Source of the DNA: Escherichia coli
GTDB taxonomy: Bacteria; Pseudomonadota; Gammaproteobacteria; Enterobacterales; Enterobacteriaceae
NCBI RefSeq assembly: GCF_044324875.1
Contig: NZ_CP172185.1
DNA length: 64,000 nt
Direction: 5' to 3' (one strand)
Below, piece after piece: positions 869-53,127 of the stretch (its first letter is position 1; the number at the start of each line of letters is the position of its first letter). The notes beneath the pieces are model-generated. The model saw only the letters and a program-made list of their open reading frames with translations. It had not been told where the DNA came from and searched no databases. The translations under genes were made by a program, and so were the position numbers.

Positions 869-958
869 GGAGAGATGCCGGAGCGGCTGAACGGACCGGT
901 CTCGAAAACCGGAGTGGGGGCAACTCCACCGGGGGTTCAAATCCCCCTCTCTCCGCCA
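869..958 (+). tRNA. serU: tRNA-Ser (anticodon CGA), 90 nt, long variable arm
   Basis: GGAGAGATGCCGGAGCGGCTGAACGGACCGGTCTCGAAAACCGGAGTGGGGGCAACTCCACCGGGGGTTCAAATCCCCCTCTCTCCGCCA. Anticodon stem CCGGT/ACCGG with loop CTCGAAA gives anticodon CGA. The variable arm differs from the attR copy by two compensatory changes. Confidence 0.9.
898..958 (+). repeat. attL core: 61 bp 3' portion of tRNA-Ser, directly repeated at 47168..47228 with 2 mismatches
   Basis: GGTCTCGAAAACCGGAGT[G/A]GGGGCAACTC[C/T]ACCGGGGGTTCAAATCCCCCTCTCTCCGCCA occurs at both ends of the phage-gene block. Integrase gene lies immediately inside. Confidence 0.75.
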
Positions 959-1003: not shown

Positions 1004-1040
1004 CTTGGAATTACTTGGAATATTTTCTTGGAATATTTTC
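1004..1040 (+). promoter_or_regulatory. Three tandem direct repeats CTTGGAAT(A/T)TT next to attL; putative integrase arm-type binding sites
   Basis: CTTGGAATTA, CTTGGAATATTTTC, CTTGGAATATTTTC in tandem, overlapping the int stop codon. An inverted copy (TTATTCCAAG) lies near attR at about 47113..47124. Confidence 0.4.
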
Positions 1041-2036
1041 AGGTAACGGGACATCAAGTGTTGGTGAAACTTTAACCTTCCGGTCATAGATTAGCACTTG
1101 CCCTTCGGTTTTGTGACCAGAGAAAAGTTGCTTATCCCGGCTGCTTCCTTCATAGTCTGAAATTCCTTTCGCCTTCAGATCATGAAAGGTGAAGTCGGTT
1201 AAAATACCTGAAACTTTGCCTGCGCGATTTCTTGCTTCTACCCACATTTCGTTAAAGCCTTTGTACATATATCGGTTGCCGTATTGATTGCTGATCACAT
1301 AGGCGGATTTTGGTAACTGTTTTGCTTTTTCGACCGCTGCCTGTAATCGTGGACTCCATGCTTTTATCTGTTTTTTCCCTGTTTTCCCTTGCTGGATAAA
1401 GATCCCGTCGTTTCCAATCTGCTCCCATTTCAGCGATAACACATCGGAAACCCTCGCTGCACACAGATAGGCAATTTCCATTGCGATAAAAACAGGAAGG
1501 GGTGCCACGCTTAATACTGCCTGGTATTCTTTGTCGGTTACATATCGTTCGCGGTTTTTGGCCTTGAATTTACTTACTCCTGCACATGGGTTAGCCTTCA
1601 CGTACCCTCGCTCATACCCCCAACTGTAAACACGGGACATACTGCTTTTTTCATGGTTGGCTTGCGTTTTACTCTGTTCCCCTCTTTTGTCCATGTATCG
1701 ACGGATGTGTTCTGGTTTTATGGAATCCGCTGGTACCTTACCGAATACGGCAAGCAACTTTTTTTGATGTTGCAGATAATCTTTTTGTGTTCTTGGACTA
1801 AGGTCACTGTAACAGGCGCTGGCGAGGAATTTTTCCCACAAGCGACCGAATGTCATTGCACGATCGCGATTATTTACAGTTTCCTCATACTTTTTCCATA
1901 AAGCAGCTAAACCATCCTTGATGGCGGTTAGTGTTACAGATTCTCTGGATGTTGGTTTCCATACATAACTATATTTATTTGGGTATACATTTGGAGGTAA
2001 TTTTTCGTGTTCAGGATTTTTCCTTCGTCTTCCCAT
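1011..2036 (-). CDS. int: Tyrosine integrase, lambda Int family
   Basis: 341 aa ORF. N-terminus MGRRRKNPEHEKLPPNVY resembles lambda Int MGRRRSHERRDLPPNLY. Adjacent to the tRNA attachment site. Confidence 0.9.
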   Translation of the reverse strand: MGRRRKNPEHEKLPPNVYPNKYSYVWKPTSRESVTLTAIKDGLAALWKKYEETVNNRDRAMTFGRLWEKFLASACYSDLSPRTQKDYLQHQKKLLAVFGKVPADSIKPEHIRRYMDKRGEQSKTQANHEKSSMSRVYSWGYERGYVKANPCAGVSKFKAKNRERYVTDKEYQAVLSVAPLPVFIAMEIAYLCAARVSDVLSLKWEQIGNDGIFIQQGKTGKKQIKAWSPRLQAAVEKAKQLPKSAYVISNQYGNRYMYKGFNEMWVEARNRAGKVSGILTDFTFHDLKAKGISDYEGSSRDKQLFSGHKTEGQVLIYDRKVKVSPTLDVPLPENIPRKYSK

Positions 2037-34031: not shown

Positions 34032-35474
34032 ATGGGTAAAGGCAGCAGTAAGGGGCATACCCCGCGCGAAGCGAAGGACAACCTGAAGTCCACGCAGTTG
34101 CTGAGTGTGATCGATGTCATCAGCGAAGGGCCGATACAAGGACCGGTGGATGGATTAAAAAGCGTGCTGCTGAACGGTACGCCGGTGCTGGACAGTGAGG
34201 GGAATACCAATATATCCGGCGTCACGGTGGTATTCCGGGCCGGTGAGCAGGAGCAGACGCCGCCGGAGGGATTTGAATCCTCCGGCTCCGAGACGGTGCT
34301 GGGTACGGAAGTGAAGTACGACACGCCGATTACCCGGACCATCACGTCGGCAAACATCGACCGTCTGCGCCTGACCTTCGGTGTGCAGGCACTGGTGGAA
34401 ACCACCTCAAAGGGGGACCGGAATCCGTCGGAAGTCCGCCTGCTGGTTCAGATACAGCGTAACGGTCGCTGGTTAACGGAAAAAGACATCACCATTAAGG
34501 GCAAAACCACCTCGCAGTATCTGGCCTCGGTGGTGGTGGGTAACCTGCCGCCGCGCCCGTTCAGTATCCGGATGCGCAGGATGACGCCGGACAGCACCAC
34601 AGACCAGCTGCAGAACAAAACGCTCTGGTCGTCATACACCGAAATCATCGATGTGAAACAGTGCTACCCGAACACGGCACTGGTCGGTGTGCAGGTGGAT
34701 TCGGAGCAGTTCGGCAGCCAGCAGGTGAGCCGTAATTATCATCTTCGCGGGCGCATTCTGCAGGTGCCGTCGAACTATAACCCGCAGACGCGGCAATACA
34801 GCGGTATCTGGGACGGAACGTTTAAACCGGCATACAGCAACAACCCGGCCTGGTGTCTGTGGGATATGCTGACCCATCCGCGCTACGGCATGGGGAAACG
34901 TGTTGGCGCAGCGGATGTGGATAAATGGGCGCTGTATGTCATCGGCCAGTACTGCGACCAGTCAGTGCCGGACGGCTCTGGTGGCACGGAGCCGCGCATC
35001 ACCTGTAATGCCTGGCTGACCACACAGCGTAAGGCGTGGGATGTGCTCAGTGATTTCTGCTCGGCGATGCGCTGTATGCCGGTATGGAACGGGCAGACGC
35101 TGACGTTCGTGCAGGACCGACCGTCGGATAAGGTGTGGACCTATAACCGCAGTAATGTGGTGATGCCGGATGATGGCGCGCCGTTCCGCTACAGCTTCAG
35201 CGCCCTGAAGGACCGCCATAATGCCGTTGAGGTGAACTGGAGTGACCCGGATAACGGCCAGGAGACGGCGACAGAGCTTGTGGAGGACACGCAGGCCATT
35301 GCCCGTTACGGTCGTAACGTCACGAAGATGGATGCCTTTGGCTGTACCAGCCGGGGGCAGGCACACCGCGCCGGGCTGTGGCTGATTAAAACAGAACTGC
35401 TGGAGACGCAGACCGTGGATTTCAGCGTGGGTGCTGAAGGGCTTCGCCATGTACCGGTGCAAAATGGCATCTGA
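34032..35474 (+). pseudogene. J: Host specificity protein J, N-terminal fragment (interrupted by IS21-family insertion at about 35458)
   Basis: MGKGSSKGHTPREAKDNLKSTQLLSVIDVISEGPIQGPVDGLKSVLLNGTPVLD matches lambda J. The reading frame runs into the IS and stops at 35474. Confidence 0.85.
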
Positions 35475-35659
35475 ATCGATCGCAGTTTGGCATTCGAATC
35501 GATCATGATTTGGCATCCATCTCCGATCACAGTTTGGCATCACAATCGATCACGATTTGGCATGCTTCCGATCATTGATTGGCATCCTGCCAGTCACTCC
35601 GGGAATTAACTCTTTTCACCACAGTCTCCATTGCCGTGTTTAAACCAGTGGAGACGTCA

Positions 35660-37225
35660 ATGTCCAGAAAGAGAAAATCCAGGAGCACTATGGAAACCTG
35701 TTTTAAGATCCTTCAGCTCAAGTTCGACAAGAAGCTGACTAACCGTTGTATCGGACTGACGTTACACATCAGCGCCTCAACCGTTTTTGAGGTTCTTGCC
35801 CGCTTCAAAGCCTCTTCTCTGTCATGGCCATTACCTGCTGATATATCCCATGACACGCTGGAGAAACTCATTTTTCCGCCCAAAGACACCTTTGCATCAG
35901 AGCTTGTAATGCCTGACATGTTGTACTTCGATACGGAAATGAGAAAACCAGGTGTGACGCGGCAACTGTTGTGGATGGAATACAAGGCACAGGCGGGTAA
36001 CAAAGCGATGGGATACTCGCACTTCTGCCGTTGCTACCGGGAGTGGAAAAAAACGCGACGTCTCTCCATGCGCCAGGAGCATCGTGCCGGCGAAAAGCTT
36101 TTTATCGACTTCTGTGGTCCTACGGTTCCTGTTATTAATCCGGACACCGGTGAGATACGCCGCGTGGCAATCTTCGTGGCCGTAATGGGGGCGTCCAACT
36201 ATACCTACGTTGAAGCGTGCGAAGGTCAGGACATGATGTCATGGTTAAATGCCCACAGCCGTTGCCTGACCTTCCTGGGCGGCGTACCGAAGCTGCTCAT
36301 CCCCGATAACCTCAGAAGCGCAGTGAAAAAGGCCGATCGATATGAGCCTGTCATCAACGACAGTTATCAGGCACTGGCTGAGCACTATGGCACGGTTATC
36401 ATCCCGGCCCGACCACGCAAACCTAAAGATAAACCAAAAGCAGAAAACGGCGTCCTCATCGTTGAACGATGGCTTCTTGCCCGCATCCGTAATGAAACCT
36501 TCCACACGCTCAGGGCGCTGAATGCGCGCCTTAGGGAGTTACTGACAGACATGAATAACCGGCCAATGAAGGGGTACGGCAATCAAACCCGTGCAGAACG
36601 CTTCCGCATACTGGATGCGCCAGCACTCTCTCCGCTGCCTCTGGCACCTTATGAATACACGGAATACAAAGCTGTGAAGGTTGGCCCTGACTACCACGTT
36701 GAATATGCCCGTCACTGGTACTCCGTTCCACACGAACTGGTCGGTCAGCGTCTGTCACTGAAGGCGGGGCAGTCGGTGGTACAGCTCTGGCACAAGGGGC
36801 AGTGTGTGGCGCAACATCCGCGCAGCACACATGAATATAAACACACAACCAATCCGCTTCACATGCCAGAGCGCCACCGGCAGCACGGGACATGGACACC
36901 GGAACGCCTGATCGAGCAGGGAAAACGTACGGGCCCGTCCACAGGCCGGGTGGTTGAATCCATGCTGAAGGCAAAACCCCATCCGGAACTGGCTTATCGT
37001 GCAGTTCTGGGGCTGCTGGCACTTCAGAAAAAATACGGCCCGGAACGGCTGGAAAAGGCCTGTTACGTTGCCCTGCACTATAACGCCCCTGACAGACGCT
37101 TTATCGACAATCTGCTGCGTCACCATCGGGAGAACCTGGAGCTTCCATTATCCCGCCAGGGCGAACAACATCCGGCATATGCTTCAGAGCATGAAAACCT
37201 GCGTGGTCCGGGCTACTACCACTGA
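35660..37225 (+). CDS. istA: IS21-family transposase IstA
   Basis: Internal ATG at 35660 with GGAG RBS; about 521 aa with N-terminal HTH and DDE-type core. Confidence 0.85.
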   Translation: MSRKRKSRSTMETCFKILQLKFDKKLTNRCIGLTLHISASTVFEVLARFKASSLSWPLPADISHDTLEKLIFPPKDTFASELVMPDMLYFDTEMRKPGVTRQLLWMEYKAQAGNKAMGYSHFCRCYREWKKTRRLSMRQEHRAGEKLFIDFCGPTVPVINPDTGEIRRVAIFVAVMGASNYTYVEACEGQDMMSWLNAHSRCLTFLGGVPKLLIPDNLRSAVKKADRYEPVINDSYQALAEHYGTVIIPARPRKPKDKPKAENGVLIVERWLLARIRNETFHTLRALNARLRELLTDMNNRPMKGYGNQTRAERFRILDAPALSPLPLAPYEYTEYKAVKVGPDYHVEYARHWYSVPHELVGQRLSLKAGQSVVQLWHKGQCVAQHPRSTHEYKHTTNPLHMPERHRQHGTWTPERLIEQGKRTGPSTGRVVESMLKAKPHPELAYRAVLGLLALQKKYGPERLEKACYVALHYNAPDRRFIDNLLRHHRENLELPLSRQGEQHPAYASEHENLRGPGYYH

Positions 37226-37241
37226 CAGAAGGAACAACAGT

Positions 37242-37997
37242 ATGAGTGATAACCTGTTAAACAAACTGACCCAACTGAAACTCCCGGCGATGGCCGGGAG
37301 CCTGATACGGCAGCGGGAAACGCCTCAGACCTACGACGAACTGTCGTTCGAGGAAAGGCTGACGCTGCTGGTTGATGACGAGCTTCTGAGCAGGGAAAAC
37401 AGCCGTGTGGCACGGTTGAGAAAAAATGCCGGCCTGAAATACCAGGCAACACCGGAAGGGCTGCGCTATCCGGCCTCAAGAGGTCTGCGGGCTGAACAGA
37501 TGAGAGAACTGCTGAACGGCCACTACATAACCCACAGGAAAAACCTGCTGATAACCGGTCCGACAGGATGTGGCAAGAGCTGGATAGCCAATGCGCTGGG
37601 CGAACAGGCATGTCGACAGAAACACAGCGTCCGGTACTGTAGAACCGGGCGATTACTGGAACAACTGGCTCAGGGACGTGTTGATGGCAGCTGGCTGAAA
37701 TATCTGAAACAGTTGCAAAAAATACAGGTTCTAATCCTGGACGATCTGGGGCTGGAACAGTTAAGTAACGCCCAGTGTAATGACCTTCTGGAGCTCATAG
37801 AGGATCGTTACGGACAAAGCAGCACGATAGTGGTAAGCCAGTTCCCGGTAGATAAATGGCATGGTCTGATGGAGAACCCAACAACAGCAGATGCCATCCT
37901 GGACAGACTGGTACATAACTCACACCGAGTGGTCCTTCAGGGAGAGTCACTGAGGAAAAATCCCCCGGTAGTGGAAAGCAGCGAAAAAACGCGTTAA
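37242..37997 (+). CDS. istB: IS21-family ATP-binding helper IstB
   Basis: MSDNLLNKLTQLKLPAMAGSL...LITGPTGCGKSWIANALG (Walker A)...LILDDLG (Walker B). Confidence 0.85.
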   Translation: MSDNLLNKLTQLKLPAMAGSLIRQRETPQTYDELSFEERLTLLVDDELLSRENSRVARLRKNAGLKYQATPEGLRYPASRGLRAEQMRELLNGHYITHRKNLLITGPTGCGKSWIANALGEQACRQKHSVRYCRTGRLLEQLAQGRVDGSWLKYLKQLQKIQVLILDDLGLEQLSNAQCNDLLELIEDRYGQSSTIVVSQFPVDKWHGLMENPTTADAILDRLVHNSHRVVLQGESLRKNPPVVESSEKTR

Positions 37998-38096
37998 AAA
38001 GCGGTAGAAAAAGTTAAGTTCCCGGTTGATCGAATGGATGCGAATCGCTGATCGGACTTCGATGCCAATCCGTGATCGAATAGAGCGGAATACGCA

Positions 38097-40219
38097 TACC
38101 GGGCGATGTCATTGAAATCTGTGATGATGACTATGCCGGTATCAGCACCGGTGGTCGTGTGCTGGCGGTGAACAGCCAGACCCGGACGCTGACGCTCGAC
38201 CGTGAAATCACGCTGCCATCCTCCGGTACCACGCTGATAAGCCTGGTTGACGGAAGTGGCAATCCGGTCAGCGTGGAGGTTCAGTCCGTCACCGACGGCG
38301 TGAAGGTAAAAGTGAGCCGGGTTCCTGACGGCGTTGCCGAGTACAGCGTGTGGGGGCTGAAGCTGCCGACGCTGCGCCAGCGCCTGTTCCGCTGCGTGAG
38401 TATCCGTGAGAACGACGACGGCACGTATGCCATCACTGCCGTGCAGCATGTACCGGAAAAAGAGGGCATCGTGGATAACGGGGCACACTTTGACGGTGAC
38501 CAGAGCGGCACGGTGAATGGTGTCACGCCGCCAGCAGTGCAGCACCTGACTGTCGAAGTCACCGCAGACAGCGGGGAGTATCAGGTACTGGCCCGCTGGG
38601 ACACGCCGAAGGTGGTGAAAGGCGTGAGTTTCATGCTTCGCCTGACCGTGGCAGCGGATGACGGCAGTGAGCGGCTGGTCAGCACGGCCCGGACGACGGA
38701 AACCACATACCGCTTCAGGCAGCTGGCGCCGGGGAACTACAGGCTGACAGTCCGGGCAGTAAATGCCCGGGGGCAGCAGGGAGACCCGGCGTCGGTATCG
38801 TTCCGGATTGCCGCACCGGCAGCGCCGTCGCGGATTGAGCTGACGCCGGGCTATTTTCAGATAACCGCCACGCCGCATCTTGCCGTTTATGATCCGACGG
38901 TGCAGTTTGAGTTCTGGTTCTCGGAAAAGCGGATTACCGATATCAGGCAGGTTGAAACCACAGCCCGTTATCTTGGTACCGGAAGTCAGTGGCTTGTCTC
39001 CGGCCAGAATATTAAACCTGGCCATGATTATTACTTTTATATCCGCAGTGTTAACACTGTCGGTAAATCGGCATTCGTGGAGGCAGTCGGTCGGGCGAGT
39101 AATGATCCTGCCGGTTACCTTAATTTTTTCAGGGGGGCGATAAATAAAACGCATCTGGGACGGGAGATCAATGAACGCATTGATGCCTCTGCACGGCGCA
39201 CTGAAGTTGAGCAACTGGAGAATGCGATTAACCGCGAAATGACGCAGCTGGAGAATGCGATTAACCGCGAAATGACGCAGCTGGAGAAAGATGTGAGGCA
39301 GCGTGCGGAGCGTGATATCGCAGAGGTGACGAAAAAAATCACGGCGTCTGAAAACAGCATAACGGAACTGGTGGCGAAAAAGAGCGGTGAACAGTCGCTG
39401 GCCATTGCGAAAGTCGACAGGAAAGTTGACAGCGTGAGCAGTGAAATCCGGCAGACAGTAAGCAGGAGCACGGAGGAGAACAGCCGACAGATAGCGCAGG
39501 TCAGGCAGTATGTTGATGATAAAAGTGCGCAAATAAGTACTGTTGTGGCGAAAAAGAGCGGTGAACAGTCAATGGCCATTGCGGAAGTTGACAGAAAAGT
39601 TGACAGGATGGGCAGCGAAATCCGGCAGACAGTAAGCAGGAGCACGGAGGAGAACAGCCGACAGATAGCGCAGATCAGACAGTATGTTGATGATAAGGGA
39701 AGTCAGATCAAACAGAGCACGGATAAAAAACTGGGATCCTGGAATGCCAGCATTGAGCAGATACAGAAAGTTCAGGAGGACACGCGCCGGAACCTGAACA
39801 GCATGTGGGCTGTGAAGCTGCAGCAGACACGGGATGGACGTCTCTATATTGCAGGTATTGGTGCCGGAATCGAAAATACGTCTGACGGAATTCAGAGTCA
39901 GATCCTGATGCAGGCAGATCGTATTGCGATGATTAACCCGGAAAATGGCAATACAACACCTTTGTTTGTGGCTCAGGGTGATCAGCTGTTCATGAATGAT
40001 GTTTTCATGAAAAAACTGACCGTGGATTTTGCCAGAGTGACGGGAGATATCCGGTCAGATAATTTTCATTCCGGTAGTCCGGGGTGGCGTTTATCAAGAA
40101 ACGGCAGCCTTGAAATTAACTCAGGAAGGCCCGGCGCAGGCCGCCTGTTTTTCAATGGCGAGCGAATCGACGTATATGACGATAACAATGTGTTAAGAGT
40201 ACGACTGGGGAGACTGTAA
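38097..40219 (+). pseudogene. J: Host specificity protein J, C-terminal fragment (distal tip diverges from lambda and carries tandem duplications)
   Basis: Continues the lambda-J-like sequence [43 protein letters not shown]. Track ORF 38159..40219. Confidence 0.85.
39214..39718 (+). repeat. Tandem duplications inside the J distal region: 2 x 33 bp and 2 x about 174 bp
   Basis: CTGGAGAATGCGATTAACCGCGAAATGACGCAG twice ([11 protein letters not shown] x2). A larger unit starting GTGGCGAAAAAGAGCGGTGAACAGTC repeats at about 39371 and 39545 with about 90 percent identity. Confidence 0.7.
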
Positions 40220-41483: not shown

Positions 41484-42812
41484 ATGGCGGCTGTAAAAAT
41501 TTCAGGCGTGCTCAGGGACGGAACCGGAAAACCGGTACCGGGATGCATTATTGAGCTGAAAGCGAAGAGAACCAGCGAGACAGTCATCGCCACGACAGTG
41601 GCTTATGGCATGCCGGAAGAGACGGGGAGTTACAGTATGGATGTGGAGCCAGGAATATACAGGGTGACACTCAATACAGAAGGTTACCGTCCTTCGTATG
41701 TGGGAGATATCGTGGTCAGGGAGGATTCTTCACCGGGAACACTGAATAAATTTCTGATGGAGATGGAAGATGCTCCTTATTATCCGAAGGCGTTGTCAGA
41801 GCTGGAGGCTGTGGTGCAGTCCATACTGCACAGAGCAGAGTCCGCGGCATCTGAGGCGGAGGAAGCCCGGAAGCGAGCAGCATCTGCCCGGGGACCACGA
41901 GGAGAGAAAGGGGATACCGGCGCTCGTGGTGAAAGAGGCATTACCGGGCCACAGGGGCCAAAAGGTGAAACAGGAGCACGTGGCCCGGCAGGACCACAGG
42001 GACCAAAAGGTGAAACAGGTGAACGCGGTCCGGCAGGTCCACAGGGACCAAAGGGCGATACAGGTGAACGCGGCCCGGCAGGTCCACAGGGACCAAAAGG
42101 TGAAACAGGTGCACGTGGTCCGGAAGGTCCACAGGGAGCAAAAGGTGAAACAGGTGAACGCGGCCCGGCAGGTCCACAGGGAGCAAAGGGCGAAACAGGT
42201 GCACGTGGTCCGGAAGGCCCTCAGGGTCTGAAGGGAGAAAAGGGTGAGCGAGGAGAAAAAGGCCCTAAGGGGGATAAAGGAGATCCGGGAGGTCCACAGG
42301 GACCAAAAGGTGAAACAGGTGAACGTGGCCCGGCAGGTCCACAGGGACCAAAAGGTGAAACAGGTGAACGTGGCCCGGCAGGTCCACAGGGACCAAAGGG
42401 CGATACAGGTGAACGCGGTCCGGCAGGTCCACAGGGGCCAAGAGGGTATACAGGTGAACGCGGGCCGACAGGTCTACAGGGGCCAAGAGGGTATACAGGT
42501 GAACGCGGGCCGGCAGGTCCACAGGGGCCAAGAGGAGAAGCGGGGCGGCCAGCGAGCGTCGGAAGTGTTTATTCCGTGGGGTCTTATGTTCTGGGGATCA
42601 TAGAACGAAATCATGAGATAACAAATACCCGTCAAATACCCGGGTATCGTATCAGACAGGCCGTTATTGTGTCGTCGTCATCGGATAAACTTACAGATAT
42701 CCGCTTTTTATTTGGCAATCCTATGCTTGGTACATGGATGTTATGCACAACTAACATGGCGGTGAATAATATCAGTGGGACGATTTGGGGCCTGTTTCAG
42801 AGAATACTGTGA
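41484..42812 (+). CDS. stf: Side tail fibre protein with collagen-like Gly-X-Y repeats
   Basis: N-terminal tail-fibre domain ([63 protein letters not shown]) followed by about 70 G-X-Y triplets. Confidence 0.85.
41884..42546 (+). repeat. Collagen-like triplet repeat array (tandem about 45 bp units) within the tail fibre gene
   Basis: Repeated GGTCCACAGGGACCAAAAGGTGAAACAGGTGAACGCGGCCCGGCA-type units encoding [15 protein letters not shown]; explains the many antisense ORFs in the track here. Confidence 0.8.
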
Positions 42813-42827
42813 CAGGGGGAGAAATGA

Positions 42828-42950
42828 ATGAAGGTCGATAAAATCACGTCACCAGTGTGGGCTGACAGGGGTCATACGACCATAAACTGTATAGTGAAGT
42901 TTTCAGACGCGGAAACAGAATGTGTATTTACAGCAAGTGCGGATGATCCG
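42828..42950 (+). pseudogene. tfa: Tail fibre assembly protein, N-terminal 41 codons (interrupted by IS66-family insertion)
   Basis: ATG at 42828 with GGGGGAG RBS; MKVDKITSPVWADRGHTTINCIVKFSDAETECVFTASADDP then a stop inside the IS end. Confidence 0.6.
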
Positions 42951-43032
42951 TAACCGGCTCATTTAAACCGTCTGGTCTGTTTCCTCCGGCTCTACAAAAA
43001 TAATGTCCATCATTTTTAATGGACACTATCGT

Positions 43033-43680
43033 ATGAAACACCGGACCTGGATCACTGAAGCTTTACGTCTTCACTTTGAAGAACATTTACCCCGGGTTGT
43101 GGCCGGGCGTCGCCTGGGTGTACCAAAATCAACAGTTTGTAGTATGTTCGTGCGCTTTCGGAGAGCTGGCCTTTCGTGGCCTTTGCCCGCAGGCATGTCG
43201 GAGCAGGAACTTGATGCCTGCCTTTACGGACAATTTTCCACGGTACCAGTCGTACGTCCTGAAAGCACCGTTATATCCGAAGCCCCCGTGGTAAAAAAAC
43301 GTCCCCGGCGGCCCAACTTCCCTTATGAGTTTAAAATCGCCTTAGTGGAGCAGTCACTGCAGCCCGGAGCCTGTGTGGCGCAGATCGCCCGGGAAAACGG
43401 AATCAACGATAACCTGCTCTTCAACTGGCGCCATCAATACCGGAAAGGTGGCCTGCTGCCTTCCGGAAAAAATATGCCGGCACTGCTTCCCGTGACGTTA
43501 ACGCCGGAGCCGGATAATAAAATCCCGGCCCCCGCACAGGAACCAGAGCAGATAAATACACCGTCCGACAGTCTGTGTTGTGAGCTGGTTCTGCCGGCCG
43601 GAACTCTCAGGCTTAAAGGTAAACTGACGCCGGCGTTATTACAGACACTTATCCGCGAAATAAAAGGGAGCAGCCACTGA
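43033..43680 (+). CDS. tnpA: IS66-family accessory protein TnpA (orf1)
   Basis: Internal Met of track ORF 43003..43680; HTH-like N-terminus. Confidence 0.7.
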   Translation: MKHRTWITEALRLHFEEHLPRVVAGRRLGVPKSTVCSMFVRFRRAGLSWPLPAGMSEQELDACLYGQFSTVPVVRPESTVISEAPVVKKRPRRPNFPYEFKIALVEQSLQPGACVAQIARENGINDNLLFNWRHQYRKGGLLPSGKNMPALLPVTLTPEPDNKIPAPAQEPEQINTPSDSLCCELVLPAGTLRLKGKLTPALLQTLIREIKGSSH

Positions 43681-44027
43681 TGATATCTCTCCCTGCAGGT
43701 TCGCGTATCTGGCTGGTTGCAGGTATCACCGATATGCGAAATGGCTTTAACGGCCTGGCATCAAAAGTTCAGAACGTCCTGAAGGATGACCCGTTCTCCG
43801 GACACCTGTTCATCTTCCGCGGACGCCGGGGTGACCAGATAAAAGTGTTGTGGGCTGACAGTGACGGACTGTGCCTCTTCACCAAACGCCTGGAGCGGGG
43901 CCGCTTCGTCTGGCCAGTCACCCGTGACGGCAAGGTGCACCTTACTCCGGCTCAGTTATCCATGCTTCTTGAAGGTATCAACTGGAAGCACCCGAAACGA
44001 ACGGAACGCGCTGGAATCCGCATATAA
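43680..44027 (+). CDS. tnpB: IS66-family TnpB (orf2)
   Basis: 115 aa; MISLPAGSRIWLVAGITDMRNGFNGLASKVQNVLKDDPFSGHLFIFRGRRGDQIKVLWAD is the typical IS66 Orf2. Confidence 0.85.
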   Translation: MISLPAGSRIWLVAGITDMRNGFNGLASKVQNVLKDDPFSGHLFIFRGRRGDQIKVLWADSDGLCLFTKRLERGRFVWPVTRDGKVHLTPAQLSMLLEGINWKHPKRTERAGIRI

Positions 44028-44046
44028 CCCGTTGTAAAGTGAGGAT

Positions 44047-45618
44047 ATGGACACCTCACTTGCTCATGAGAACGCCCGCCTGCGGGCACTGTTGCAGACG
44101 CAACAGGACACCATCCGCCAGATGGCTGAATACAACCGCCTGCTCTCACAGCGGGTGGCGGCTTATGCTTCCGAAATCAACCGGCTGAAGGCGCTGGTTG
44201 CGAAACTGCAACGTATGCAGTTCGGTAAAAGCTCAGAAAAACTTCGTGCAAAAACCGAACGGCAGATACAGGAAGCACAGGAGCGAATCAGCGCACTTCA
44301 GGAAGAAATGGCGGAAACGCTGGGTGAGCAATATGACCCGGTACTGCCATCCGCCCTGCGCCAGTCTTCAGCCCGTAAACCGTTACCGGCCTCACTTCCC
44401 CGTGAAACCCGGGTTATCCGGCCGGAAGAGGAATGCTGTCCTGCCTGTGGTGGTGAACTCAGTTCTCTGGGATGTGATGTGTCAGAGCAACTGGAGCTTA
44501 TCAGCAGCGCCTTTAAGGTTATCGAAACACAACGTCCGAAACAGGCCTGTTGCCGGTGCGACCATATCGTGCAGGCACCAGTACCTTCAAAACCCATTGC
44601 ACGCAGTTATGCCGGAGCGGGGCTTCTGGCCCATGTTGTCACCGGGAAATATGCAGACCATCTGCCGTTATACCGCCAGTCAGAAATATACCGTCGTCAG
44701 GGAGTGGAGCTGAGCCGTGCCACACTGGGGCGCTGGACAGGTGCTGTTGCTGAACTGCTGGAGCCGCTGTATGACGTCCTGCGCCAGTATGTGCTGATGC
44801 CCGGTAAAGTCCATGCTGATGATATCCCCGTCCCGGTCCAGGAGCCGGGCAGCGGTAAAACCCGGACAGCCCGGCTGTGGGTCTACGTCCGTGATGACCG
44901 TAACGCCGGTTCACAGATGCCCCCGGCGGTCTGGTTCGCGTACAGTCCGGACCGGAAAGGTATCCATCCACAAAATCACCTGGCCGGTTACAGCGGTGTG
45001 CTTCAGGCCGATGCTTACGGTGGTTACCGGGCGTTATACGAATCCGGCAGAATAACGGAAGCCGCGTGTATGGCTCATGCCCGGAGAAAAATCCACGATG
45101 TGCATGCAAGAGCGCCCACCTACATCACCACGGAAGCCCTGCAGCGTATCGGTGAACTGTATGCCATCGAGGCAGAGGTCCGGGGCTGTTCAGCAGAACA
45201 GCGTCTGGCGGCAAGAAAAGCCAGAGCCGCGCCACTGATGCAGTCACTGTATGACTGGATACAGCAACAGATGAAAACACTGTCGCGTCACTCAGATACG
45301 GCAAAAGCGTTCGCATACCTGCTGAAACAGTGGGATGCACTGAACGTGTACTGCAGTAATGGCTGGGTGGAAATCGACAACAACATCGCAGAGAACGCCT
45401 TACGGGGAGTGGCCGTAGGCCGGAAAAACTGGATGTTCGCGGGTTCCGACAGCGGTGGTGAACATGCGGCGGTGTTGTACTCGCTGATCGGCACATGCCG
45501 TCTGAACAATGTGGAGCCAGAAAAGTGGCTGCGTTACGTCATTGAACATATCCAGGACTGGCCGGCAAACCGGGTACGCGATCTGTTGCCCTGGAAAGTT
45601 GATCTGAGCTCTCAGTAA
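44047..45618 (+). CDS. tnpC: IS66-family transposase TnpC (orf3)
   Basis: 523 aa with N-terminal coiled coil, Cys cluster CPACGG...CCRCDH, and DDE-type core. Confidence 0.85.
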
Positions 45619-45648
45619 ATATCAATACGGTTCTGACGAGTCGCTTAC

Positions 45649-46110
45649 GATGATCCTGAGTCTTACGGTCGTGAAATATTTGAAGCCTGCATAAGAGGTG
45701 ATGCAGGGCCGGTAGGTGAGTACCGGGCAAATGATGATATGGCTGTGGAAGAAGCACGCAGGATGAAAAACGCGGAGATAAATGCCTGGCGTGATGCGAT
45801 GGAGGCGTCAGGGTATGTTTTTGAGCACAGAGGACGGAAATGGGATTATGGAAAGGAAACCATGACACGTCTTGGAATGTCGGCATCAGCGGCCAGAGGC
45901 GGTGTGTTGCCGGAAGGATTTTTCTGGACGGACGCAGAGAATAATGATGTACCGATGACGGCAGATGAACTGATATCCCTGAGTGATGCTGCTGGTAAAG
46001 CGATGTTCAGGAAAGGCCTTGAAATACATATAAGGCAAAGGGAGATGAAAAAGGCAATAGCAGAACTGAGTGACAGTGAAACCATTCTGGCGTACAGGGT
46101 TGGATGGTGA
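45649..46110 (+). pseudogene. tfa: Tail fibre assembly protein, C-terminal fragment
   Basis: In frame with the N-terminal fragment once the IS and one TSD copy are removed (..ADDPESYGREIFEACIRGDAGPVGEY..); track ORF 45739..46110. Confidence 0.6.
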
Positions 46111-46127
46111 AACTGATAAAAAAACCC

Positions 46128-46160
46128 CTCTGAAAATTCTGTCAGAGGGGGGCAAGGATC
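46128..46160. terminator. 9 bp perfect hairpin CCCCTCTGA/TCAGAGGGG with flanking A-run (T-run on minus strand)
   Basis: Located just after tfa; geometry favours minus-strand termination. Confidence 0.4.
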
Positions 46161-46336
46161 TATATTTATTATGCGGTAATGCTTTCACTCCGGTAATTAA
46201 TTTCAGTGATTAACTGCTTTCGATCAATAAAGGAATTGCAAAAAGGTGATCTTGTTCACGACATTGTGGATGATAATATGCCTGATGTCTGAATCCGGAA
46301 ACAGTGATCTGGCGGGTTTCATGTGAAGTTGACGGA

Positions 46337-46368
46337 TAAAAAATCCGCACGACCAGACAGACGTGCGG
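46337..46368 (-). terminator. Rho-independent terminator downstream of the ykgJ-like gene
   Basis: CCGCACG-loop-CGTGCGG hairpin, followed on the minus strand by a T-run. Confidence 0.5.
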
Positions 46369-46475
46369 TTTACGAAATTCGTAACAAGAGGCTTTTCTAG
46401 GGATCACGTGGTGCGTGCCACGTGAAATTTTTGTAGCGCAAAATGTGTAATGTGTAAATACAAGGAAGGAAAAAG

Positions 46476-46805
46476 TTAAATCGGTGGAAGTCCATACCGG
46501 GAACGTGCACGGTTACATGCTTCGTTTTCAATACCATTTTCACCAGACATGGCAAATTCCCGGCACGTTGATGAACGGTTTTCGTAGATGGTACAGCTCG
46601 CTTCTTTACCTGGTGTTCCTGCAAGGGCAATACATCTGGGGTTTTTCTGGTTTGTACCGATCATGCATCGGTGCAAAGGCGATACTTGTTCAGTAAGTCT
46701 GGCTGGAATGGTGCCGCCAGCATCGTCGGCTTCGGCCCAGTAAAAAGAGACGCGGAAAAATGCACAACAGGCACCACACGTTATGCATGGATTTGGATTG
46801 CTCAT
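46476..46805 (-). CDS. YkgJ-family (UPF0153) Cys-rich putative metal-binding protein; cargo gene at the prophage right end
   Basis: [31 protein letters not shown]...[16 protein letters not shown] closely resembles recalled E. coli YkgJ (CxxCGxCC motif). Confidence 0.75.
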
Positions 46806-47167
46806 AATTCACCACAGCTATAAATTATAAAGAAAACCGCAGCATGTCGTATGCAAGAACGTGCTGCAGCTGGCTGGTTAACTTTCGATAGTGCGAGTAT
46901 TGAATGATTTCCAGCCGTTACCGATTTTATATAACTGCAGTGGAATTATTCAACACAGGCAAAACGGAATAAGCTGAGAAAAAAGCGTACTTTCCCAATC
47001 TGGGGCAAATCACGTCTGAATGACACCTGACAACAGATGGTGGCCTCAAGAAGGCTTGGAATATTCTTCTTTAATGTTATGTAAATTATTGATTTTTCGT
47101 GTACGATTTTAAGACATTTATTCCAAGAAAAATTTTTAACTCTTTGATTTTTCGACTCTGTATCATC

Positions 47168-47228
47168 GGTCTCGAAAACCGGAGTAGGGGCAACTCTACC
47201 GGGGGTTCAAATCCCCCTCTCTCCGCCA
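47168..47228 (+). repeat. attR: partial 3' copy of tRNA-Ser with the host-type variable arm
   Basis: GGTCTCGAAAACCGGAGTAGGGGCAACTCTACCGGGGGTTCAAATCCCCCTCTCTCCGCCA; lacks the tRNA 5' half. Confidence 0.75.
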
Positions 47229-47775
47229 CTTTATCAATGACTTATCTCCCGACTTCCCGCCTTGCTTTTCCTAAACAGAACAATCGTAGAATATTCTTGA
47301 AGGGTTAGATCGTCACTGTTTTCTGTTCGATACTGTGACATTCAGCACTTGATTCGCTATGGATCTGACAGGAAGGTTTCGAGCGAAAATCTGCAATTAT
47401 TCAGTCGTTTTCTTATCGGTCACCATTATTCTTTTAGACATTGATCCTACAAAGCTGCCGCAAAGTTGGTGGTGGGAACTGAAGTTGCGTAGAGAAGTGG
47501 TCAATAATTGAGCAAAAAAAGGAACGCGGCCGTCAGATTAAAGCCGCGGGACAAAGTCCATAATTTCCAAGAGTTGTTGAATTTCCCAGCTTTTTTGAAA
47601 GCCTTCGTATCATACTAACAAGTAAAAAAGGTTTAAATACCAAAATTAACCTATATTTCTGGTTAGCTTTACCATGACAGATGACTTGCTCCTGGAGACA
47701 TTGGCGCAGCCAGTCTGTATTGGTGAGTTGTGTATTTATTGTTCGCCGTTTTCTCAGTTTTTTCTACAGACATAA

Positions 47776-47815
47776 TAAAAAAGACACGTCTCAAGCATGA
47801 GCGTGTCTGAGTTTG
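47776..47815 (-). terminator. Rho-independent terminator downstream of zinT
   Basis: AGACACG...CGTGTCT hairpin, followed on the minus strand by TTTTTTATT. Confidence 0.5.
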
Positions 47816-47895
47816 TCTTATTTATTTGTCTTGGTAAATTATTGTCGTTACTACCAGGCACTGTTCTGTTAAATAATTGAATCAGCGAAAAAAAA

Positions 47896-48546
47896 TCAAT
47901 GAGACATCATTTCCTCGACCACTTCTTCGCTACTCAACTGATAGGGATAATACGTTGGCCAGTTTTCCATTTCATTTAATAAAGATTGCTGTGAATCATT
48001 ACCCATAAAAATGTGAAAATGAGATGATTTTCGTGGTGCAATTATATGATCGCTAAATTGAATATATTTAGGGGCTTTGCTTTCAGGATCTTTACATTCG
48101 AATAAATAACGAACGCCTTTCTTACCTGATTTATAGGTGAGTATTTTGTATCCATCGTAATCATATTTACAGGATGTTGTTTCATTATTTCTATGGAATT
48201 CAACAATGCCGTCCTCAATGCCAATCATCTCGATATCTGTCACATAACCTTTGCGATAATAATCTTTAATTTCAGCAAATGTTTTGGTTTTATCTGCATC
48301 CGCTTTCTTCTGAAAGACGGGGTCAAGTTTGCCACTTTGCAGTAAAGGATAAACGGATTGCCATACTCCATCCCAGTCACTTAGCGTTCGGTTTTGTACA
48401 TTGGCATCATCAAAAACACCATTAGCAGCTTTTTGTTCGACCTCTGTTAAGGGTTTGCCGTGTGAGTGATGACCATGCGAAAAGGCAGGAGCGCTAACAA
48501 TAAAGACACCTAAAGCAACAGCCAGTTTATGAAGACGAATCGCCAA
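47896..48546 (-). CDS. zinT: Zinc/cadmium-binding periplasmic protein ZinT (YodA)
   Basis: 216 aa with signal peptide and His-rich [12 protein letters not shown]; recognised as ZinT. Confidence 0.9.
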
Positions 48547-48802
48547 AACAGTTTCCTCCAGAGTTAATGTATATAATGTGTAATGTTATATTGTAACATA
48601 TAACAAAATGCAACAACTCTTAGGAAACGAGTGCAAAGTTACCTCAGGTATATTTTCCTATCTTATTGAAATGACATAAATTATGTCGATGATTTGAGGT
48701 TGATGACAAACGAAACATAACCTGATGTGATCTGCGTAGGCCGGATAGGGCGCTCGCGCCGCATCCGGCAGGGATAACGCGTACTTTGTCGGTAATATGA
48801 AG

Positions 48803-49438
48803 TTATAGAGATAATTTGTTGTGAACCTGCTTGCGTAACCGGTTGAAAAGGGAAAGCAACTTCTTATACCGTAAGGCTAAAAGCAGTACCGCCAGCCCAG
48901 CGTAGATGAGTGGCTGCGGTGAAATAATCTTCACTGACCACAGATAATGTATTGGGGCCAGGATCGCGACAAGATAGACGAAATTATGCAACTGTTGCCA
49001 GTGCTTGCCGAGTTTTCGCTGCATCGCCTGGGTTGAAGTAAACGCTAAAGCAAGCAAAATAACCCAGCTGATAATTCCTAACGTTAAATAAGGCCGGGTA
49101 ATTAACTCCTTACCTAATAACGCCAGATTATTCACGCCCAGCTCCAGTAATGCGTAACTGGTTAAATGCAGTGTCGCCCAGGCAAAGCACCATAAGCCTA
49201 ACAGGCGGCGAGTGCGTATCAATAACGGCTGTTTTGCGTAGCGTGCCAGAGGTGTGATTAACAAGGTCGCCAGCAAAAATTTCAGTGCAGTGCGACCAGT
49301 AAAATGCTGAATATCTTTCACTGGATCGGCACCCAGTCCACCGTGATTGATCGCCCAGACCAGCCAGAGAAACGGCAACAATCCGGCAAGATGCAGGCAA
49401 ACTTTCATCCATGTCACCTGTTTTGCTGTCAGACGCAT
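48803..49438 (-). CDS. msrQ: Methionine sulfoxide reductase haem-binding subunit MsrQ (YedZ)
   Basis: 211 aa polytopic membrane protein immediately downstream of msrP. Confidence 0.9.
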
Positions 49439-50449
<1,011 letters not shown>

Positions 50450-50551
50450 TCACACTTTTTTGTCGTTAGCCAGCAAGAGCCGTTTACTGTTAATCTGTCA
50501 GGGAGTGTCCTCCCTAACAGTAGCAGAGATCTGCTTTTACATATTTATGCA

Positions 50552-50965
50552 TTAACTGCCACGATAGGTTGAATACCCATATTGGCTAAGTAATAAAGGC
50601 ACATGATAATGCTCGTTCACTTTATTAATATGAAATTCAACGGGGATCTCAGGGAAGAAACTTTCAAGATTTTGTTTCTTGAAATAGTCCCCGGTTTTAA
50701 ATACGACACGGTAATCGCCCGTAGTTGCAGTTTGCTCGGGCCACAGTGCCTTAATTCGTCCATCCTTATCTGTTTTGGCGGTATTAAGTTGTAACCAGCC
50801 GTTGTCCGCTTTCTTTTCAAGAGTGACTGTCACGTCGGCAGCGGGTTTTCCTGTTTGCTGGTTCAAAATGTGCACGCTAAGAATGTTTTGTTGTGCAGCA
50901 TAGACCAAAGAAGGTAATGAAAATGCAGCCGTTACTACGGAGAGTACTAAATAACGCTTTAACAT
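50552..50965 (-). CDS. hiuH: 5-hydroxyisourate hydrolase (transthyretin-like) HiuH
   Basis: 137 aa with signal peptide and C-terminal YRGS motif. Confidence 0.85.
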
Positions 50966-51097
50966 GTTTATATCCTTGTCATGTGAATGAGTTTTGAGGA
51001 TAGCGAAAAAGCGTCCAGGGTAACCTTACAGCAGCATTACAATTTTGTAATGAACCAGGCTGTTTCTATAACATATGATTTATGGCATATTATTTTC

Positions 51098-51769
51098 ATG
51101 AAGATTTTACTTATTGAAGATAATCAAAGGACCCAGGAGTGGGTAACGCAGGGGCTTTCCGAAGCGGGTTATGTCATTGATGCCGTTTCTGATGGCAGAG
51201 ATGGGCTTTATCTTGCGCTGAAGGATGATTATGCATTGATCATTCTGGATATTATGCTTCCGGGTATGGATGGCTGGCAGATCTTACAAACGTTAAGAAC
51301 AGCAAAGCAAACCCCTGTTATTTGCCTTACTGCAAGGGATTCTGTCGATGACAGAGTCAGAGGGCTGGACAGTGGAGCAAATGATTATCTGGTAAAACCT
51401 TTTTCATTTTCTGAGTTGCTGGCAAGGGTTCGGGCACAATTAAGGCAACATCATGCTTTGAATTCAACATTAGAAATCAGTGGCTTAAGAATGGACTCTG
51501 TTAGTCAAAGTGTGAGCAGGGACAATATCAGTATTACACTGACGCGCAAGGAGTTTCAGTTACTTTGGCTACTGGCCTCCAGAGCTGGCGAAATTATACC
51601 CAGAACGGTTATTGCGAGTGAAATTTGGGGAATCAACTTTGATAGTGATACCAATACGGTGGACGTCGCCATTCGCAGGCTCCGCGCAAAAGTTGATGAT
51701 CCTTTTCCTGAAAAGCTAATCGCCACAATCCGGGGGATGGGCTATTCATTCGTAGCGGTAAAAAAATAA
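51098..51769 (+). CDS. hprR: Two-component response regulator HprR (YedW), OmpR family
   Basis: Internal ATG at 51098 (MKILLIEDNQRTQEW) of track ORF 50987..51769; receiver plus winged-helix domains. Confidence 0.85.
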   Translation: MKILLIEDNQRTQEWVTQGLSEAGYVIDAVSDGRDGLYLALKDDYALIILDIMLPGMDGWQILQTLRTAKQTPVICLTARDSVDDRVRGLDSGANDYLVKPFSFSELLARVRAQLRQHHALNSTLEISGLRMDSVSQSVSRDNISITLTRKEFQLLWLLASRAGEIIPRTVIASEIWGINFDSDTNTVDVAIRRLRAKVDDPFPEKLIATIRGMGYSFVAVKK

Positions 51770-53127
51770 TGAAAAGATTATCTATAACCGTCCGTTTAAC
51801 CTTGCTTTTTATATTGGTGCTGTCTGTTGCTGGCGCTGGAATTGTCTGGACTCTCTATAATGGCCTGGCAAGTGAGTTGAAATGGCGCGATGATACAACA
51901 CTCATTAACCGGACAGCGCAGATCAAGCAGTTGTTAATTGATGGGGTAAATCCAGATACGTTACCTGTGTACTTTAACCGGATGATGGATGTTAGTCAGG
52001 ATATCTTGATCATTCATGGTGATAGCATCAACAAAATTGTTAACCGGACGAATGTCAGTGATGACATGTTAAATAACATACCTGCTACTGAGACAATCAG
52101 CGCAGCTGGCATTTACAGAAGCATTATTAATGATACAGAGATAGATGCTTTACGAATTAATATTGATGAAGTTTCGCCATCATTAACGGTTACTGTGGCT
52201 AAATTGGCTTCAGCCAGACATAACATGCTTGAACAGTATAAAATTAATAGCATTATAATTTGCATTGTCGCCATTATACTTTGTTCAGTATTAAGTCCGC
52301 TGTTAATCAGAACGGGGTTACGAGAGATCAAAAAGTTGAGTGGTGTAACGGAAGCGCTGAATTATAACGATAACCGGGAGCCTGTTGAGGTTAGCGCATT
52401 ACCGAGAGAACTAAAACCTCTTGGGCAGGCGTTGAATAAAATGCACCAAGCCTTAGTCAAAGATTTTGAACGCCTAAGTCAATTTGCTGACGATCTCGCT
52501 CATGAACTTAGAACGCCAATTAATGCATTACTGGGTCAGAATCAGGTTACGCTCAGTCAAACCAGAAGTATCGCTGAATATCAAAAAACAATTGCCGGAA
52601 ACATTGAAGAGCTGGAAAATATTTCGCGGTTAACAGAGAACATACTGTTTCTTGCCAGGGCAGATAAAAATAATGTTTTGGTGAAACTGGACTCGCTTTC
52701 TCTCAATAAGGAAGTCGAAAATTTGTTGGACTATCTTGAATACCTTTCAGACGAGAAAGAGATTTGCTTTAAGGTCGAGTGCAATCAGCAAATCTTTGCG
52801 GATAAAATTTTACTACAACGAATGTTATCGAATCTTATTGTTAACGCTATTCGATATTCGCCAGAAAAATCGCGCATTCTTATAACCAGTTTTCTTGATA
52901 CCAACGGCTCTCTTAATATTGATATCGCCAGCCCTGGTACGAAAATTAATGAGCATGAAAAACTCTTCCGTAGATTTTGGCGCGGAGATAATTCGCGTCA
53001 TTCCGTAGGTCAGGGACTTGGTCTTTCTTTAGTCAAAGCGATTGCCGAATTGCATGGGGGAAGTGCTACGTATCACTATCTCAATAAGCTTAATGTGTTC
53101 CGGATTACGTTACCGCAAAGAAATTAA
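51769..53127 (+). CDS. hprS: Sensor histidine kinase HprS (YedV)
   Basis: 452 aa with two TM segments, H-box (LAHELRTPINAL) and ATPase motifs. Confidence 0.9.
   Translation: MKRLSITVRLTLLFILVLSVAGAGIVWTLYNGLASELKWRDDTTLINRTAQIKQLLIDGVNPDTLPVYFNRMMDVSQDILIIHGDSINKIVNRTNVSDDMLNNIPATETISAAGIYRSIINDTEIDALRINIDEVSPSLTVTVAKLASARHNMLEQYKINSIIICIVAIILCSVLSPLLIRTGLREIKKLSGVTEALNYNDNREPVEVSALPRELKPLGQALNKMHQALVKDFERLSQFADDLAHELRTPINALLGQNQVTLSQTRSIAEYQKTIAGNIEELENISRLTENILFLARADKNNVLVKLDSLSLNKEVENLLDYLEYLSDEKEICFKVECNQQIFADKILLQRMLSNLIVNAIRYSPEKSRILITSFLDTNGSLNIDIASPGTKINEHEKLFRRFWRGDNSRHSVGQGLGLSLVKAIAELHGGSATYHYLNKLNVFRITLPQRN

Follow-up and report, generated by a model that had tools for sequence, protein, structure and literature searches.

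The end of a lambdoid prophage at serU in this Escherichia coli chromosome raises the question whether the ykgJ-like gene found there is phage cargo, how it reached this place, and whether it still contributes to the lysogen. The window analyzed here is a stretch of 64,000 nucleotides (contig NZ_CP172185.1, assembly GCF_044324875.1), and all coordinates refer to it. An earlier note had described the gene as a minus-strand, Cys-rich ykgJ relative with its own terminator and about 350 bp of AT-rich upstream DNA, situated between the tail-fibre-assembly gene tfa and attR as terminal prophage cargo, and it had named as the contrary case a core gene at this position in prophage-free strains. The ends of the prophage and the interruptions in its late genes are as follows.

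869-958, plus strand: complete tRNA-Ser(CGA) gene serU at attL (ARAGORN; comparison with the native tRNA of strain KE55 and with the attR copy).
1011-2036, minus strand: tyrosine integrase of the serU prophage (Pfam Phage_integrase with central and SAM-like N-terminal domains).
35458-38098, plus strand: IS21-family element (IstA/IstB) inside the tail-tip gene J (Pfam rve, Mu-transpos_C_2, IstB_IS21).
42827-42949, plus strand: 5' part of the DUF4376 tail-fibre-assembly gene, severed by the IS66 insertion (99% match to tfa of TUM1886 up to 42949).
42950-45648, plus strand: IS66-family element with three ORFs and an 8-bp target duplication, GATGATCC (Pfam HTH_Tnp_1, TnpB_IS66, DDE_Tnp_IS66; junctions read directly).
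45739-46110, plus strand: 3' part of the tfa (DUF4376) gene (Pfam DUF4376, E 6e-21; collinear with the intact 191-aa gene of TUM1886).
47167-47229, plus strand: attR, the displaced native 3' part of serU, 63 nt (alignment with attL; identical to the 3' end of the KE55 tRNA).

The 3' part of serU at attL is supplied by the phage and carries a compensatory G...C variant in the variable arm, while the native half known from KE55 is the copy at attR; a phage-supplied 3' tRNA end at attL is the usual result of integration into a tRNA gene. The J gene of TUM1886 aligns to 34032-35456 and 38087-40216, on either side of the IS21 element. With J split by IS21 and tfa split by IS66, the serU prophage is defective. 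The gene of interest occupies the interval from the tfa stop at 46110 to attR; its placement between tfa and attR thus stands, but tfa is not whole, and what adjoins the interval is the 3' part of the gene.

Beyond attR, the chromosomal flank (47230-52000) matches several E. coli strains at 99.8-99.9% identity, among them KE55 (99.8%). In KE55, mtfA-serU runs straight into the base that here follows attR, with neither a prophage nor ykgJ, and in K-12 the order is zinT-yodB-serU-mtfA, again with no ykgJ at this place. The contrary case named above is therefore not what these strains contain, and the position of ykgJ within the prophage boundaries together with its absence from both empty serU sites supports its assignment, by sequence comparison, as prophage cargo. 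Sister prophages at serU hold other genes in the same place: XJ6.1 and many others with the same attR arm encode a GGDEF protein there, the prophage of APEC O1 an alpha/beta hydrolase together with a ykgJ stump, and that of EC12 NleG, a HECT-type E3 and NleC, likewise with a ykgJ stump. The tfa-to-attR interval is evidently a cargo slot whose contents are exchanged among sister serU prophages.

Whether the gene always accompanies this type of prophage, a question that the earlier note had left for checking, has a one-sided answer. The serU attR arm (46930-47164) is present in 826-1016 of 5426 complete E. coli genomes, and within this complete-genome set the window allele (at least 99% identity) was found in only two of the arm-bearing genomes, TUM1886 and AR_0085. 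Records of the exact protein come from 557 assemblies, and the ten contexts that were read all show the order zinT (with or without yodB), attR, ykgJ, DUF4376 tfa, tail fibre, J. Co-occurrence is thus one-way: the allele goes with the serU prophage end, whereas the prophage type is not always accompanied by the gene.

The interval itself contains the gene, two terminator-like hairpins downstream of it and a composite upstream region.

46111-46475, no strand assigned: non-coding spacer 3' of ykgJ (365 bp), part of a recurrent module, 46031-46558.
46118-46150, minus strand: distal intrinsic terminator with a 9-bp stem and a T7 run (terminator scan).
46337-46368, minus strand: proximal terminator-like hairpin, CCGCACG...CGUGCGG, then AUUUUUUAU (RNA fold).
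46476-46805, minus strand: ykgJ paralogue, 109 aa (ORF, Pfam, alignment to chromosomal YkgJ).
46806-46929, minus strand: captured upstream block of the ykgJ/ecpE type (124 bp), phage att-like DNA, homologous to HK633 attP and of the 'attB-in-PP_2' type (sequence comparison).
46837-46869, minus strand: conserved hairpin with a U-tract after it (46829-46836), resembling a terminator in the ykgJ/int sense (fold z -3.4).
46880-46927, minus strand: 48-nt ultra-conserved core of the att-like block (48/48 in HK97, 47/48 in K-12 and HK633).
46930-47164, no strand assigned: AT-rich, serU-prophage-specific arm forming the phage side of attR (235 bp; genome survey, promoter scan).

The family assignment is clear-cut. 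The PF03692 profile, labelled by Pfam as CxxCxxCC, 'putative zinc- or iron-chelating domain', is matched over its whole length (profile positions 1-85 of 85, E 9.4e-11) and scores 42.7 bits, compared with a curated gathering cut-off of 23; 95 of the 109 residues (87%) are identical to the chromosomal YkgJ of K-12, and in this same setting RefSeq lists the gene as 'YkgJ family cysteine cluster protein'. Taken together, profile match and identity lie far beyond chance expectation. The protein has the N-terminal CxxCxxCC motif and four further conserved cysteines, that is, all eight family-invariant ones (C7, C10, C13, C14, C58, C71, C81, C97). These eight show no variation among 34 Enterobacterales sequences, and among 132 diverse PF03692 members each is at least 90% conserved. 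The serine at position 70, where K-12 has C70, is the family-majority state and represents no loss. The G+C content of the gene (48.8%) is not atypical.

In about 4960 of 5426 complete E. coli genomes the core ykgJ gene is flanked by yagU and ecpE and shares 84-85% nucleotide identity with the window copy, and homology between the two loci covers 46506-46929, i.e. the ORF and 124 bp upstream. Judged from this relationship, the window gene is a paralogue of the core chromosomal ykgJ and not an orphan. It shares with K-12 YkgJ (b0288, YKGJ_ECOLI, yagU-ykgJ-ecpE) the length of 109 aa, the eight cysteines, the ribosome-binding site and 86% identity over the 124 bp upstream; in contrast to the K-12 gene it resides in a prophage at serU and is strongly diverged at synonymous positions. 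K-12 ykgJ is followed by the IS009/EcsR2 sRNA, whereas Rfam finds no such RNA at the window copy, whose downstream DNA is unrelated. No donor species for the window allele emerged, as no species representative exceeded 86% amino acid identity.

Synonymous divergence between the window gene and the K-12-type chromosomal copy is near saturation (dS 1.06), with a dN/dS of 0.069. Two other phage-borne copies gave similar values (dS 0.89 and dN/dS 0.064 for KC-Dl-1; dS 0.79 and dN/dS 0.060 for FORC_082), although these ratios average over whole lineages and may mainly mirror time spent in chromosomes. A dN/dS of about 0.06 at a dS of about 1, combined with the retention of all eight cysteines, argues that the prophage protein is under strong purifying selection and still selected. 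PF03692 comprises at least 1282 clusters at 50% identity, chiefly stand-alone proteins of 110-170 aa. An AlphaFold model built on the 132-sequence alignment is confident (pLDDT 94.3); it has no structural relatives in the PDB or BFVD, and PDB sequence searches with the single protein and with the profile returned no match. Searches of NCBIfam, PHROGs and PADLOC were likewise empty and so lend no support to a known phage function or a defence system. Pfam families other than PF03692 were matched by none of the 132 family members, leaving no Pfam link to DUF3109.

The upstream region turned out to be as long and as AT-rich as proposed: the 359 bp from 46806 to 47164 have 37% G+C, compared with 51% for the prophage. 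They are composite, however, consisting of the ykgJ/ecpE-type att block (46806-46929) and the serU arm (46930-47164). The block is 86% identical to K-12's ykgJ/ecpE intergenic region and 84-89% identical to HK633 and HK97 (84.5% for the HK633 attP region). Its 48-nt core is nearly unchanged among these sequences, in contrast to the third codon positions of the adjacent ykgJ, which are only about 60% identical. In an alignment fold of eight sequences, the hairpin at 46837-46869 shows compensatory double changes in 4 of 13 pairs; it is terminator-like and may act as a terminator in the int/ecpE/ykgJ sense. Rfam gave only sub-threshold matches (the 3' hairpin of CssrB at 46803-46868, plus strand, 37.6 versus 76 bits).

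The att-like block occurs in 198 phage records, and the HK633 record labels it attP, 'similar to non-coding region between genes ykgJ and yagV'. Over about 100 bp, the attP regions of HK633, HK75, HK542 and mEp460 and the relic in HK97/HK106 are 84-93% identical to the window block, and this stretch takes in both the hairpin and the 48-nt core. Unlike in the window, HK633-type phages carry no ykgJ with the block, which serves there as attP (or adjoins it) and separates int from the tail-fibre genes. A ykgJ/ecpE-derived 'attB-in-PP_2' has been described in STEC prophages (Nakamura 2021, PLoS Pathog 17:e1009073; PMC8112680); lambda-like phages integrate there, giving rise to prophages within prophages (PMC8112680). 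These prophages resemble the window in carrying a block of this origin at the lambdoid tail-fibre end beside exchangeable cargo, and the window block aligns with Sp15 and Stx2 phages at 83-84%. Their block, however, extends over at most 309 bp (about 35 ykgJ codons) and its site is used by other phages, whereas the window has the whole gene, an unoccupied site and a location at serU. The block here is a single uninterrupted copy with no flanking duplicate, and from its similarity to these attachment sites we consider it a potential secondary attachment site for HK633/lambda-like phages.

Sp15/VT1-Sakai offers a further comparison with its H0001-H0002 region (SOS-box promoter, dinI, truncated 'similar to YkgJ'). 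With respect to the tail-fibre genes it is oriented as in the window, and an att-like block likewise precedes the ykgJ start, but H0002 is a 66-aa fusion or stump, and the window has neither dinI nor an annotated SOS box. In Sp15/VT1-Sakai the att-like block is located between the SOS-box dinI and the truncated 'similar to YkgJ' ORF. With respect to its position, the window cargo also resembles lambdoid morons and effector loci (lom, bor, NleG/NleC), which are found after stf/tfa and before attR, on the strand opposite to the late genes, with their own terminators and replaceable. It differs from these in that it duplicates a housekeeping-like host gene, lacks a signal peptide and has a G+C content that is not atypical.

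A terminator of its own had also been claimed for the gene, and two minus-strand terminator-like hairpins were in fact found. The stem of the proximal one runs from 46368 to 46345, about 110 nt past the ykgJ stop, and its U-run extends to about 46337; the distal hairpin is at 46150-46125. Owing to its 10-nt loop, the proximal hairpin escaped the terminator scan. The spacer 46111-46475 matched nothing in Pfam or Rfam. On the 5' side, the promoter scan yielded no strong sigma-70 promoter directly upstream of ykgJ. Its sole match upstream of the gene was a promoter-like site, TTGAAT-18-TAAAAT, at 46953-46924 on the minus strand, from which transcription would need to read through the leader hairpin and U-tract. 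Within the att-like block, a candidate -10 element, TATAAT (46829-46824), and the native Shine-Dalgarno sequence, GGTGA, come after the hairpin; a genomic SELEX paper mentioning ykgJ held no usable promoter information. In summary, ykgJ is oriented opposite to the late operon and has two terminators, a leader hairpin with U-tract and promoter signals that are weak consensus matches only. We infer that transcription of the gene would run counter to the late genes, begin at a weak promoter within the att-like block or immediately upstream, and end at the gene's own terminators.

Intact phage-borne copies of ykgJ exist elsewhere. In FORC_082 the gene follows tfa in a prophage next to potB, and in KC-Dl-1 the order is tfa-ykgJ-dinI-int, adjoining dusA, with overlapping 3' ends of tfa and ykgJ. 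Stumps are found in two forms. Sp15, about 50 Stx phages, APEC O1 and EC12 retain 5' ykgJ stumps with the att block only, with breakpoints at 46537 in APEC O1 and at 46699 in EC12, Sp15 and Stx2 phages. In 370 E. coli genomes, the module 46031-46558 (the end of tfa, the spacer of 365 bp and the final 83 bp of ykgJ) is present, and beyond it, from the 3' stump breakpoint at 46558, other cargo is found, also within sul2 islands. Given this frequent reduction to stumps, the phage does not need ykgJ, and often neither does the host. By comparison with both kinds of stump, the window cassette seems to preserve the slot undisturbed, whereas elsewhere cargo has repeatedly displaced the middle of ykgJ.

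How the gene was acquired can be approached from the order of the elements. Read in the ykgJ sense, the chromosome has ecpE, then att, then ykgJ, so that the captured gene adjoins a known attB there, while HK633 has int, then att, followed by stf in the opposite orientation. From these two orders it follows that the int end of a prophage at the ykgJ/ecpE site would be adjacent to ykgJ. Imprecise excision of such a prophage, as in specialised transduction, would yield the order tfa, then ykgJ, att and int in the opposite orientation, and the ORF would move with 124 bp of ykgJ/ecpE-type intergenic DNA as a single captured block. The window and KC-Dl-1 have the predicted order of an excision product (tfa, then in opposite orientation ykgJ and att, followed in KC-Dl-1 by dinI and int); in the window, the int/att module would later have been swapped for the serU type. 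We therefore infer that ykgJ was captured by aberrant excision of a phage integrated at ykgJ/ecpE.

The opposite direction of transfer is compatible with a short neighbour-joining tree, in which the chromosomal ykgJ of E. coli nests among three phage lineages. In 71 of 80 Enterobacterales species sampled, the family orthologue is located between ompW and yciC. E. albertii carries this ompW-linked orthologue; in K-12 it is cleanly deleted, with no remnant found. Copies not linked to ompW are not syntenic (near icd in E. whittamii, next to an Ail/Lom gene in C. braakii). A tentative scenario, which we put forward as possible and somewhat doubtful, is that an intact tfa-spacer-ykgJ-att cassette was ancestral in many E. 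coli lambdoid slots, that effector and other cargo loci replaced the middle of ykgJ, that the non-ompW 'group A' lineage was spread by phages, and that the chromosomal ykgJ-att locus is a fixed prophage end which replaced the ompW-linked orthologue. If true, this would explain both the 5' stumps with att block (46537, 46699) and the 3' stumps with spacer (46558), and the 'core' ykgJ of E. coli at ecpE would belong to the phage-disseminated group A.

We consider it probable that ykgJ is an intact phage-borne paralogue in the terminal tfa-attR slot of a defective serU lambdoid prophage, captured with its att block and adding a second YkgJ activity. The lysogen would then gain a YkgJ activity divergent from that of its chromosomal copy. 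The biochemistry can be approached by analogy with FliB and with DpdM (DUF3109), which published descriptions set beside YkgJ. Like YkgJ, these proteins have a Cys-rich N-terminal C..C..CC motif, and FliB has eight conserved cysteines; the spacing differs (CX4CX3CC in FliB, CX2CX2CC in YkgJ). The FliB motif binds a [4Fe-4S] cluster needed for SAM-dependent lysine methylation, and PF03692 has been cited as having a similar motif (PMC8598068). DpdM was reported as a YkgJ homologue and preQ1 methyltransferase (PMC10516641). By analogy with FliB, the CxxCxxCC motif of YkgJ would most likely hold a [4Fe-4S] (or Zn) centre, and on balance we rather expect the prophage protein to bind such a cofactor.

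The most serious competitor is the view that the att-like block, as landing pad and terminator, is the selected element and that ykgJ is a passenger with no role in the lysogen, not yet decayed in this lineage. The non-coding 48-nt core is indeed far more conserved than the synonymous sites of ykgJ, most prophages hold the block with a mere ykgJ stump, the function described in the literature belongs to the block and not to the gene (Nakamura 2021), and the allele is rare among complete serU-arm genomes (2 of 826-1016). However, a passenger would hardly be expected to keep a dN/dS of about 0.06 even among three phage-borne lineages, nor every invariant cysteine, nor an exact protein that is unchanged in 557 assemblies while IS elements struck the neighbouring genes. 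We thus regard a pure passenger as unlikely, though still deserving consideration next to a selected second YkgJ.

Far less probable is a dedicated lysogenic-conversion enzyme, namely a minimal N-methyltransferase that resembles FliB/DpdM, depends on [4Fe-4S] and SAM, and would act on protein lysines or on 7-deazaguanine DNA of host or phage. FliB and DpdM are the only characterised proteins tied to this Cys-motif group, and the location is typical for conversion genes, but YkgJ has just 109 aa and no recognisable SAM-binding region, a DUF3109 Pfam match is absent from all 132 family members, the PDB and BFVD hold no structural relative, and no 7-deazaguanine genes were seen nearby. In addition, the chromosomal orthologue is widespread and housekeeping-like, and a K-12 ykgJ knockout has a mild phenotype, filamentation in biofilm (PMC8743551). 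That ykgJ is simply a core gene of the serU-zinT backbone beside the prophage can be dismissed. Although ykgJ is near-universal in E. coli and the neighbouring zinT, msrQ and msrP belong to the core, this view is refuted by the empty serU sites of KE55 and K-12, by the mapping of core ykgJ to yagU-ecpE and by the displaced 3' end of the tRNA, relative to which the gene is on the phage side.

The intact ykgJ paralogue is genuine terminal cargo, but as a host gene on a phage it is not very unusual and no new kind of system; RefSeq already annotates the gene and the literature already discusses its remnants, and what is new is the intact copy. The AT-rich region upstream is explained mostly as phage attachment sequence and terminator. 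Phage stacking in STEC is known to accumulate effectors and to duplicate Stx phages, and the att-like block could let further phages stack into the serU prophage in the same manner. As a rarely seen intact form, the window cassette can serve as reference for the ykgJ stumps with which Stx and other lambdoid prophages end. It also points to strong selection, on phages too, for the small, structurally uncharacterised and putatively Fe-S-type YkgJ family.

The serU-integrated lambdoid prophage is interrupted by two insertion sequences, and the following features of its tail region and attR-proximal end were delimited:

35458-38098: IS21-family element within the tail-tip gene J, encoding IstA (rve and Mu-transposase C domains) and IstB
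41484-42812: tail-fibre gene containing collagen-like repeats, which match Pfam Collagen in three stretches
42950-45648: IS66-family element with three ORFs, interrupting the DUF4376 tail-fibre-assembly gene (tfa)
46031-46558: recurrent module comprising the 3' end of tfa, a 365-bp non-coding spacer and the final 83 bp of the prophage-borne ykgJ

The IS21-family element separates residues 1-475 of J (34032-35456) from residues 470-1180 (38087-40216), and the IS66-family element is flanked by an 8-bp target duplication, GATGATCC. Since both J and the tail-fibre-assembly gene are split by these insertions, the prophage is defective. Between them, the collagen-like repeats of the tail-fibre gene account for a local G+C content of 0.60-0.63 and an AT skew above 0.5 at 41800-42550.

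The module at 46031-46558 was found in 370 E. coli genomes. It occurs in other prophages, for example LH50-c at btsS, where it is followed by a YadA-like adhesin, and also in sul2/ISCR2 resistance islands. The 365-bp spacer was searched against Pfam and Rfam and matched neither.

Upstream of ykgJ lies the att-like block (46806-46929). In the related loci L002 and L003, RefSeq/PGAP places a 69-72-bp 'capsid protein' pseudogene fragment on it (window equivalent 46858-46929); the att DNA here is non-coding, and this assignment by protein homology is apparently spurious. Rfam returned a sub-threshold match to CssrB, Shigella sRNA B, at 46803-46868 on the plus strand (37.6 versus 76 bits), covering only the 3' hairpin; this similarity suggests that the Shigella CssrB locus ends at a copy of the same att-block hairpin. 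In other hosts of the prophage (L102 and L103, from assemblies encoding the identical 109-aa YkgJ protein), IS elements of the IS66 and Transposase_mut families lie between attR/yodB and the start of ykgJ, in or next to the att-like block.

Comparison of the complete tRNA-Ser at attL (869-958) with the native 3' half displaced to 47167-47229 shows two differences, at positions that pair with each other in the variable arm, as G...C at attL versus A...T in the native sequence. The tRNA 3' end at attL is therefore a compensated variant supplied by the phage. Beyond attR, the interval up to zinT (47230-47895) lacks yodB, a cytochrome b561 homologue, which is likewise missing between the serU end and zinT in KE55, a near-identical strain without the prophage, and in APEC O1, which carries another serU prophage; yodB is present in K-12, in TUM1886 (same prophage end and ykgJ allele) and in several assemblies carrying the same prophage. 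Its presence or absence is a backbone polymorphism, independent of the prophage.

A YkgJ-family gene is located between ompW and yciC in 71 of 80 Enterobacterales species, E. albertii included (L021-L095). The corresponding K-12 site (1311000-1317000) shows a clean deletion, with about 47 bp in place of about 405 bp, and the sole E. coli copy is the one at ecpE, which adjoins the phage att site.
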